A stretch of DNA of 64,000 nt from Escherichia coli (lineage in GTDB: Bacteria; Pseudomonadota; Gammaproteobacteria; Enterobacterales; Enterobacteriaceae): the NCBI RefSeq assembly GCF_002854065.1, contig NZ_CP024147.1; one strand, 5' to 3'. Of the stretch, positions 4,044-7,308 are shown one piece after another (position 1 is the first letter of the stretch; each line of letters opens with the position of its first letter). The notes below the pieces were generated by a model that saw nothing but the letters and a program-made list of their open reading frames with translations, searched no databases and was not told the origin of the DNA. Made by a program: the position numbers and the translations under genes.

Positions 4044-4922
4044 TTATTGGAAAAATTGAGAGGGATTTTCACGTAACATCACATCCACATCGGCCTGACT
4101 GAATCCTGACTGGCGCAATTGCGGAATAAAGGTGGTTAGTAAATAGTCATAGCCATAACCACCGTTGGCTTTTAAATGGGAGCGGCGCGTAATATCCATC
4201 GACAGCATGACGCGGTTCAGCAACCCACGGTCGCGTAGCGCATGAAGCATCGCAATACGCTTTTCGTCCGGGTAGTAACTGTTCTTACCAATGGTGTCGA
4301 ACTGCACATACGCGCCGAGATCGATCATCTTCAAAATGTTGTCGAGGTTGTCTTTCAGATCGCAGTGACCAACGGTGACGCGCGAAAGATCAACTCCGTG
4401 GGCTTGCAACAAAGCCAGTTGCTCCAGCCCCATCGTGCTGAACGACGTATGCGTGGAGATCGGGCGTCCGGTCTGGTTATGTGCCAGCGCGGCGGCAATA
4501 AATACCTTCTCTTCCAGCGGCGTAATCTTCCCTTCGCTGGAGCCGATCTCCGCGATGATCCCGGCTTTCAGTTCCGTGCCATCGATACCCTGCTCAATTT
4601 CATCGACCATCTCCTGCGCCAGTTCCTGCACGCTGCGGGTCGCCACATGTTCCGGGAAAAACGCGTCCTGGTAATAACCGGTACAGGCCACCACGTTGAT
4701 CCCCGTCTCGCGCATTACATCGAGCATAAATTGCGCATTGCGCCCCATGTAACGGTTGGTCATCTCAATCACATTACGCACGCCCCGGGCCATCAGGTCG
4801 TTCATCTCCTGGCAAATGAACGAATACTGATCAAGGCGGCAGTCCACGTTGTTTTTAAAGCCGGAGAGATCAATATGCAGATGCTCATGGGCGAGGGTGT
4901 AACCCGTCGGATCAAAACTCAT
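4044..4922 (-). CDS. php: Php, phosphotriesterase-homology protein (amidohydrolase superfamily, 292 aa)
   Basis: ORF 292 aa, HxH metal-binding start [20 protein letters not shown]; synteny. Confidence 0.9.
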
Positions 4923-6145
4923 AGGGTGTCTCCTGCAAACCGGAGGGAGGAAAGAAAAGAGCGACCATTTTGTGGCGGTGGCGCACGGAAAAATTCACAC
5001 ACGGTAGCCCCCACATCAGAAAGCGTGGTGCGCACACCGATCTGCGTAGTGACCAGCCCTTGCTGATAAACCAGCACTGGCACCACTTCACGGGTATGGT
5101 GGCTGTGACCAATGGTCGGATCGTTACCGTGATCCGCCATCACGACCAGGCAATCATCTGGCTGCATCGCCTCGACAAGCCGGGCAAGATTACGGTCAAC
5201 GACCTGCAAACGTTCGGCATAACTTGCGACGTCTTCTGCGTGACCAGCGAGGTCGGTTTCCTGAATGTTGGTGCAAATAAACGCTGTCTGATGGGTGATA
5301 AATTCGTCGAGGGTGATATCCATAATCCGCTGGCTATCCACCAGATTTTGCCAGCTCACGCCATAAGGATTGTTGACGATATCTGCCACCTTACCCACCA
5401 GCACGGTTGGCACGCCTGCTTCATACAGTTTTTGTGGCACCTGCACTTTTTCATCGACGCCATAGCCCATATGCACGACCTGGAAACCGTTGTCATAAGC
5501 GCCAGAACGCGGCGCATTAATACCAATAAAGCGCCCTTCTTTGCTTTCTGCGGCATCGAGAATACGCTGACTGTCGGTTAACAGGCCGCCAAATGTAATG
5601 ACCCGACCGACCTGTACCTGGTCACGCACGATACGACCAATTTTGATTGCGTCGTCAAAAGAGATCACAGAGAGATTGGCGGTAATGTTATAGACTTGGC
5701 CTAAATCCGCCTCGAGATTATCGCCAATCGCAACCGCCTGATTGACTCACAGAAATTGCAGTTCATCGCCACGGCGCTCCACCTGCCAACCGGCGGATAC
5801 TAATGCCTGCTCAACACGGTCAATCACATCGCGAAAGGGCATCCGCAGCGGCGGTAACGGGCGCGTGCCTAAAATTTCCTGATGCCCCATAAAGGTATCG
5901 CCACCTTCATGTTGCAGCTCTGCCACACCCCAGGTTGCGGAGTCTGACGGCTGCATATCACCTGGCGCATAACCCAATGCGTTGATTAGCCCCAGCTTCT
6001 CCAGCGTTGGTAGCTGCAAATGCGGCAGCTGGCTCAGGATGTGACCACAGGTATTCGCTCCGGCATCTTGCGGGCGCACCAGCGTGACATCTTTCATTGC
6101 ACCTACGCCAAAGCTATCAATCACTAACACCACAAATCGCGCCAT
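4919..6145 (-). pseudogene. yhfW: yhfW (phosphopentomutase-like, 408 codons) interrupted by an in-frame TGA at 5747..5749 (codon 133)
   Basis: ORFs 5747..6145 and 4919..5668 are in the same frame; the combined span of 1227 nt equals K-12 YhfW of 408 aa plus stop. Confidence 0.8.
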
Positions 6146-7308
6146 TACGCCTCCAGAGAGTTTCCAAGACTGTCATAACGACCGACAATTTCCGGTTCGC
6201 CACGCTGAATACCCGATACCAACACCACATCACTGCGGGTAACAAAAATCTGCGTACGAAAACAGAACACTACGGCACTACTCACCGGAAACTCGCCTGC
6301 TAACGGCAGGTAATAGTCGATACTGCTGTCATCCACAGTTTTGAGATTTGTTTCAGTAATCTTTTGATTTTCTGGCGTAAACACCAGCGCATGTTGCGCA
6401 TGACCACGACGGTAATAACCGCCGCCGTAGCAGTAGCTGTCGCCACGGAAATGGTGGGAAATTTCACTTAACCAAAGCATCGCGATACGTTCAGGCTGAT
6501 CGCCCTGCTGGTTTGCCGGAATTGTGCCCGTCAGCGCATGACCGGGTTCGGCATGAGTCACACCGTATTGCGCCAGCAATGGCAACGAAGTGCAGCTGGT
6601 CGCAGAAGGTGCGTTCAGTTGCTCAATCGCAATACCAGATTTCGCCAGTTGATCCCGTGCCTGTATCAGCGTGTGAAGATTCGGTGTCGGCAAAACTTTC
6701 CCGGCAGCCTCATCCCAAAGCAGGCAAGGGAAATGGGTTAGTCCGGCTAAATGCAGCCCCGGCAGTTTCTTAATTTCAGCAACCACCTCGTGCAGCGAAT
6801 GCTGTACAAAACCGCTCTCCTGCCCCGGATAAAGAAAATCATCGTCGCTATAAACTTTGAGCAGCACAGACTGGATTCGCCCGGCTTTCACCGCCGCCGC
6901 AGAAACTTCCCGCGCTTTGTCGAGAGTAAACACGGTGATGACGTCGGTGCCCTGTTCAACGGCGTCAGCAACCTGATGACAAGGGATTTGTACCAGATGC
7001 CCCTGATGCGCCACCGGCAAACCAGCGCGGCGCATGACTCGCGCCTCTTTGTAATCCACCGCCACAATGCCGCTGTAGCCCAACGCCAGCAGTTTTTCCG
7101 CCAGCCATGGGTTACGACCGAATTGTTTGGTCATCAGATACAGTTCAATGCCGTAAAGCCGCGCCGTCTCAATCTGCCGCTTACCGTTTTCCAGTATCTG
7201 ATCCACGTCGATCACCCAGCTGTCCGGGGCGATCTTGCCCTGCTGCCACAGACTTAAAGCGGCGGAAATCAGCGCCGGGTTCTGGCGTTTCAATGCTTCT
7301 ACAAACAT
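6145..7308 (-). CDS. yhfX: YhfX, alanine-racemase-fold (fold type III PLP) protein, 387 aa
   Basis: ORF 387 aa; synteny; 4-nt ATGA-type overlap with yhfW start. Confidence 0.85.

Follow-up and report, generated by a model that had tools for sequence, protein, structure and literature searches.

The yhfW gene of Escherichia coli contig NZ_CP024147.1, within the 64,000-nucleotide stretch of DNA analyzed here (the window), is interrupted by a single in-frame TGA at codon 133, and the interrupted gene is very probably a loss-of-function nonsense allele inherited clonally within one E. coli lineage. The allele is already known, the same W133 TGA being annotated as a pseudogene in RefSeq, and it is a case of ordinary gene decay. 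In the history that we propose, a G:C to A:T transition would have converted Trp133 from TGG to TGA at the root of a single lineage, after which the TGA allele would have been inherited clonally. Translation would stop after 132 residues. The product would keep no more than the first Asp of the metal site and the motif with the Thr nucleophile; having neither the cap region nor the C-terminal Asp/His metal ligands, it would be inactive as an enzyme.

The yhfW locus and its reading frame

The features of the locus that bear on this reading are as follows.

4919..6145, minus strand: yhfW pseudogene, a full-length frame with one interruption as judged by translation, colinear with K-12 b3380
5747..5749, minus strand: premature TGA, codon 133 of yhfW; the mutated base is window position 5747 (plus strand T, ancestral C)
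5750..6145, minus strand: predicted 132-aa N-terminal product of yhfW, with only the Asp10 and Asp83-Thr84 motif of the metalloenzyme core
4922..5746, minus strand: yhfW coding sequence 3' of the stop (~825 nt), predicted to be untranslated, encoding the cap region and DLAGH, ADHGND and HHTRE
4919..4922, minus strand: ATGA overlap of the yhfW terminator and the php start codon (sequence CAGGAGACACCCTATGAGT), with AGGAG upstream, a translational-coupling junction
6145..7308, minus strand: yhfX (PLP-dependent enzyme), intact; its TAA shares one base with the yhfW ATG
4044..4922, minus strand: php (phosphotriesterase-related protein), intact, a 292-aa ORF and the first gene downstream of the yhfW stop

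The initial annotation had described two ORFs in the same frame that together span 409 codons and are interrupted by one TGA at codon 133, and translation of the minus strand bears out the coordinates, the codon number and the length. ORFs 5747..6145 (132 aa) and 4919..5668 (249 aa, GTG start) lie in a common frame of 408 sense positions plus the terminator, and its sole internal stop is that at codon 133. The pattern is not one of chance, and 4919..6145 is best annotated as one pseudogene, not as two separate ORFs.

The identity of the gene is given both by its sequence and by its place. Aligned to yhfW of K-12 MG1655 (b3380, "putative mutase YhfW", named phosphopentomutase by PGAP), the window copy is equal in length and matches at 1227 of 1227 nt with no gaps and 36 substitutions, remaining colinear across the stop. 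The gene order of the window is also that of K-12 (trpS, yhfZ, yhfY, yhfX, yhfW, php, yhfU, yhfT, yhfS), with the operon yhfZYXW-php-yhfUTS placed between trpS and yhfL/cysG. Full-length colinearity with b3380 and the conserved operon position beside trpS thus identify the window copy as the yhfW orthologue. The operon comprises eight genes, whose products include a GntR-type regulator, a PRD protein, two PLP enzymes, the mutase, the amidohydrolase-fold Php and the membrane protein YhfT. By megablast with the 1227-nt query, yhfW, annotated under that name, is present in 5074 of 5426 complete E. coli genomes, with at least 80% of the query covered at 90-100% identity in 5072 of them, while the remaining 352 genomes (6.5%) gave no match.

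YhfW had been described as phosphopentomutase-like and a member of the metalloenzyme superfamily, and profile and structure comparisons agree. Residues 3-388 of the intact protein match the Pfam Metalloenzyme family (PF01676) with 186.4 bits (cut-off 24.3; E=8.5e-55), and solved phosphopentomutases match YhfW at E about 1e-30 (e.g. PDB 3m8w, E=2.5e-30). The Bacillus cereus phosphopentomutase (PPM; PDB 3m8w) and DeoB share the Metalloenzyme domain with YhfW, and the DS..G, GDT..GH, D..GH, ADHGNDP and HTRE motifs are conserved; the relationship of YhfW to B. cereus PPM is nonetheless distant, with two separate matched stretches. A separate deoB gene exists in E. coli. The PGAP name "phosphopentomutase" for YhfW denotes the family rather than an activity that has been assayed, and our literature search found only gene-list mentions of yhfW and its operon, with no assigned function.

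The ancestral codon and the age of the mutation

Codon 133 is TGG (Trp) in the yhfW alignment of K-12, TUM13936 and XJ34, and the window copy, with TGA at this codon in an otherwise full-length frame, is by comparison with K-12 a pseudogene. The mutation is G399A in yhfW coordinates, corresponding to C-to-T on the plus strand of the window at 5747, and is a G:C to A:T transition. Among the intact alleles the closest is that of XJ34, which matches the window at all but 2 of 1227 nt, the nonsense base itself being one of the two. Since the nearest intact relative thus differs at only one other base, the W133 TGA mutation is recent, and the pseudogene is at an early stage. The same youth explains the state of the frame downstream of the TGA, which is fully open on translation and carries no second lesion.

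At gene position 149 of yhfW the alignment also shows C in K-12 against A in the window and in all seven other tabulated copies; this C looks like a K-12-specific substitution.

Distribution of the TGA allele and other nonsense alleles

Carriers of the allele were sought among 5426 complete E. coli genomes with a 31-mer centered on the variant, for which megablast needs an exact 28-base word and so reports only carriers. The TGA version was found in three genomes, versus 4917 genomes for the TGG version. Two of the three, strain 100416 (NZ_CM128593.1; human stool, Gambia) and strain CUWW06 (NZ_CP182139.1; wastewater, Thailand), are complete genomes with a yhfW 100% identical to that of the window, which RefSeq/PGAP labels "pseudo, internal stop" in both. 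In strain 100416 the identity to the window extends by local BLAST over a 13-kb locus at 100%, apart from a 768-bp insertion (IS1) in the window, and points to clonal inheritance.

The third carrier, "isolate 12" (NZ_CM194533.1), is a Hungarian food-container isolate whose yhfW is likewise flagged "pseudo, internal stop". Its yhfW differs from that of K-12 at 2 sites and from that of the window at 34, and at the polymorphisms nearest to the stop, yhfW positions 384 and 450, it has the K-12 base. So K-12-like a gene implies an independent origin of the TGA, unless a conversion tract of less than 66 bp carried the mutation. The 132-aa product of the NZ_CM194533.1 type is found on 37 contigs. A third background carries TAG at codon 133 through G398A; its representatives, GCA_000805835.1 and FDAARGOS_944, share one and the same yhfW sequence. 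The initial annotation had offered a strain-specific nonsense mutation as one reading: the nonsense mutation and the ancestral TGG stand, but the allele is not confined to a single strain, being that of a lineage and also recurrent.

We extended the survey to each possible single-base nonsense change in yhfW on the window and K-12 backgrounds, using 159 concatenated 31-mers against the 5426 genomes. Nonsense alleles were found in 39 complete genomes (~0.8% of the complete genomes having yhfW) in nine combinations of site and allele.

Q113 TAG: 6 genomes
Q121 TAG: 1 genome (ATCC 8739)
W133 TAG: 1 genome (FDAARGOS_944)
W133 TGA: 3 genomes, on two backgrounds
E145 TAG: 4 genomes
Q150 TAG: 5 genomes
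Q235 TAG: 1 genome
Q272 TAG: 15 genomes, the commonest in complete genomes (e.g. strain 203740)
C291 TGA: 3 genomes

The three alleles that were inspected (ATCC 8739 Q121, FDAARGOS_944 W133 and 203740 Q272) are all flagged "internal stop" and have intact neighboring genes. Truncated YhfW proteins are also present on public contigs: a form ending before Q130 and named Shigella sonnei is found on at least 1000 contigs, one ending before W120 on 20, and one ending before Q272, from S. boydii, on 169. The Q121, W133 and Q272 TAG alleles of these three strains and the S. sonnei pre-Q130 fragment resemble the window allele in being single-base stops; they differ from it in position or in stop codon and lie on other genetic backgrounds. 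As judged from these genomes and contigs, loss or inactivation of yhfW recurs across E. coli and Shigella, and the stop in the window is one of many independent knock-outs.

ATCC 8739 (NZ_CP043852.1) is a widely used reference strain, and its own yhfW nonsense allele is annotated as pseudo.

Recurrence of stops at codon 133

Given three stops at one codon, codon 133 could be a mutational hot spot, or the loss of YhfW could be positively selected, a reading that we consider very improbable. It would draw on the occurrence of TGA on two backgrounds 34 sites apart, the second with flanking SNPs of K-12 type at 384 and 450; on the TAG on a third background; on codon 133 accounting, in the unbiased survey, for 3 out of 10 or more independent origins of a nonsense allele; and on one isolate of the TGA lineage in which two of four SNPs create additional stops in operon genes. 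A Trp codon, however, can become a stop by either of two transitions, as no other codon can, and when 8-10 transition events were distributed in a neutral simulation over 36 transition-nonsense sites, it was to be expected that one base would be struck twice (P=0.57-0.75). A codon struck three or more times is somewhat more than this simplest neutral model predicts (P about 0.06-0.12); the value is not significant, the less so as the test is post hoc. The mutated codon is not part of a CCWGG site for Dcm (local sequence CTGTGGGTC). Only 3 of 5426 genomes carry the allele, and extra disruptions are to be expected once a first knock-out has relaxed selection. The three independent stops at codon 133 are probably due to chance.

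It is likewise very improbable that Trp133 is a preferred target of inactivation, whether as a local hot spot or through selection against YhfW or the whole yhf pathway. If this were true, it would account for the three independent stops at codon 133 together with the yhfX and yhfU knock-outs in the TGA lineage, and the TGA alleles, UGA being occasionally read as Trp, would be leaky rather than null.

Predicted effect of the stop on YhfW

Under the preferred reading of a clonally inherited loss-of-function allele, the product should be unable to function, and the position of the stop is consistent with this. The TGA splits a single Metalloenzyme domain, with the 132-aa product covering profile positions 2-67 and the rest of the gene positions 72-250; the 132-aa product scores 24.0 bits against the Pfam Metalloenzyme cut-off of 24.3. 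Alignment with B. cereus phosphopentomutase (3m8w) places Asp10 and the GDT84 motif before the stop, and DLAGH (298-302), ADHGND (337-342) and HHTRE (349-353) after it. We take these motifs to provide the ligands of a two-metal site and the phosphorylated Thr, as in the B. cereus phosphopentomutase structures. With the metal-ligand motifs divided by the stop, neither fragment alone could form the active site. The truncated product is without motifs needed for function, as seen from both the domain split and the alignment, and we infer that the truncated YhfW enzyme would be inactive and the allele a loss of function.

Recoding, read-through and restart

Functional recoding of the TGA, by selenocysteine insertion or by efficient Trp read-through, or a split enzyme of two assembling fragments is extremely improbable. 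The frame 3' of the TGA is still fully open, and Trp, the residue that read-through would insert, is the ancestral one. UGA is read at low frequency in E. coli by Trp-tRNA(Trp), which competes with RF2 (PMC10570021). TGG is nevertheless the ancestral and overwhelmingly common codon (4917 genomes), so that a recoding element is not expected here, and relatives do have TGG rather than TGA at the site. A scan of positions 5400-6000 against Rfam returned no family, SECIS included, at E up to 10; no SECIS-type stem-loop was found, and this empty scan rules out SECIS-directed recoding.

Restart within the frame was considered as a source of a useful C-terminal fragment. All ATG, GTG and TTG codons 3' of the stop were scanned for anti-SD pairing, and no in-frame restart with a Shine-Dalgarno sequence was found. 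Pairing at the in-frame candidates is weak or absent, ranging from +1.9 to -3.9 kcal/mol, with the GTG of the 249-aa ORF at +1.9; at a best value of -3.9 kcal/mol, a restart yielding such a fragment is ruled out.

Traces of normal YhfW may still be made. Basal read-through amounts to a small fraction of translation. If Trp-tRNA(Trp) now and then read the yhfW UGA, it would insert the ancestral residue, and the protein made would be exactly wild type.

Carriers outside the complete genomes

Exact copies of the 132-aa product, for which the index lists 294 blocks, are found on 187 public contigs, and those of the 249-aa ORF 3' of the stop on 164; the count of 187 pools the TGA and TAG alleles, as both yield the identical 132-aa protein. 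The gene arrangement of the window is seen in 22 of 24 contigs examined, the remaining two being of the TAG type, and TGA was confirmed in three of those 22, the three whose yhfW was checked. Of the five displayed occurrences of the 132-aa product, three are in independent assemblies of sequencing runs, one is in an NCBI assembly and one in a metagenome scaffold from ENA. That the TGA is a sequencing or assembly error over a true G in an intact yhfW, the alternative raised in the initial annotation, is scarcely conceivable and can be excluded as a general explanation, for although a single-base substitution is the sort of difference that error could make, the same base is present in two identical, independently sequenced complete genomes and the same allele recurs in NCBI, Logan and ENA assemblies of separate samples.

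Flanking differences within and beyond the lineage

The window carries an IS1 element of 768 bp at 142-909, with typical IS1 ends (GGTAATGACTCC...GGCAGCATCACC) and a 9-bp target duplication (CCTGTATCG) at 133-141 and 910-918. The insertion point is in the cysG-yhfL interval, 5' of yhfL and about 75-83 bp from its start. Strains 100416 and CUWW06, which are otherwise identical to the window, lack IS1 at this site, and the window therefore represents a further isolate of the lineage. A second difference sets the lineage apart from K-12, in which yhfL and yhfS are separated by the fructoselysine operon frlABCDR; this operon is missing from the lineage of the window (window about 919-1266), and in strain 100416 no more than about 106 bp separate yhfS from yhfL, with cysG next in order. 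Unlike the lineage of the window, the Hungarian TGA carrier NZ_CM194533.1 retains frlR and frlD.

Consequences for the rest of the operon

Beyond YhfW itself, the ~825 nt of ribosome-free mRNA and the lost coupling at the ATGA junction may lower the expression of php, yhfU, yhfT and yhfS, and Rho-dependent polarity or uncoupling from php to yhfS is plausible on sequence grounds. A crude C-minus-G scan, which is no proof of Rho action, finds one C-rich, G-poor stretch, with the strongest excess of C over G ~431-510 nt after the stop. The php gene, whose annotated start in K-12 and the other genomes compared falls at this same overlap, is preceded by its own AGGAG Shine-Dalgarno sequence, which would make independent translation possible, and the polarity could thus be slight.

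The other operon genes in the window are intact. Full-length frames are present in the window for yhfZ, yhfY, yhfX, php, yhfU and yhfT. In strains 100416 and CUWW06 the protein accessions of yhfY, yhfX, php, yhfU, yhfT and yhfS, yhfZ being left aside, are those of XJ34, whose yhfW is intact; the php protein WP_028132032.1, for example, is common to XJ34 and a window-identical genome. As the other genes are intact and share accessions with strains having an intact yhfW, the operon has not been visibly abandoned by the lineage.

Two assemblies of the TGA lineage show additional damage. In SRR29091354, yhfX W279 is changed to TGA and yhfU K16 to TAA, at its positions 2674 and 5158, corresponding to 6472 (yhfX) and 3988 (yhfU) of the window; across 6.4 kb this assembly and the window differ at four positions, two of which are these stops. 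In ERR9384437 a 1-nt indel affects yhfX near position 2552 of that assembly. Either the yhf operon has gone on decaying since yhfW was hit, as these changes suggest, or the two assemblies contain errors; damage of this kind fits the lineage because relaxed selection after the first knock-out predicts such hits.

Significance of the allele

The TGA lineage would have lost one enzyme of an uncharacterized eight-gene operon, a loss of little weight beyond annotation, and the TGA allele is usable as a clonal marker of the lineage. Taken across the survey, the nonsense alleles, the genomes with no match and the truncated Shigella copies indicate that yhfW is dispensable in nature, a pattern that would fit a catabolic pathway tied to a particular niche and selected only intermittently.
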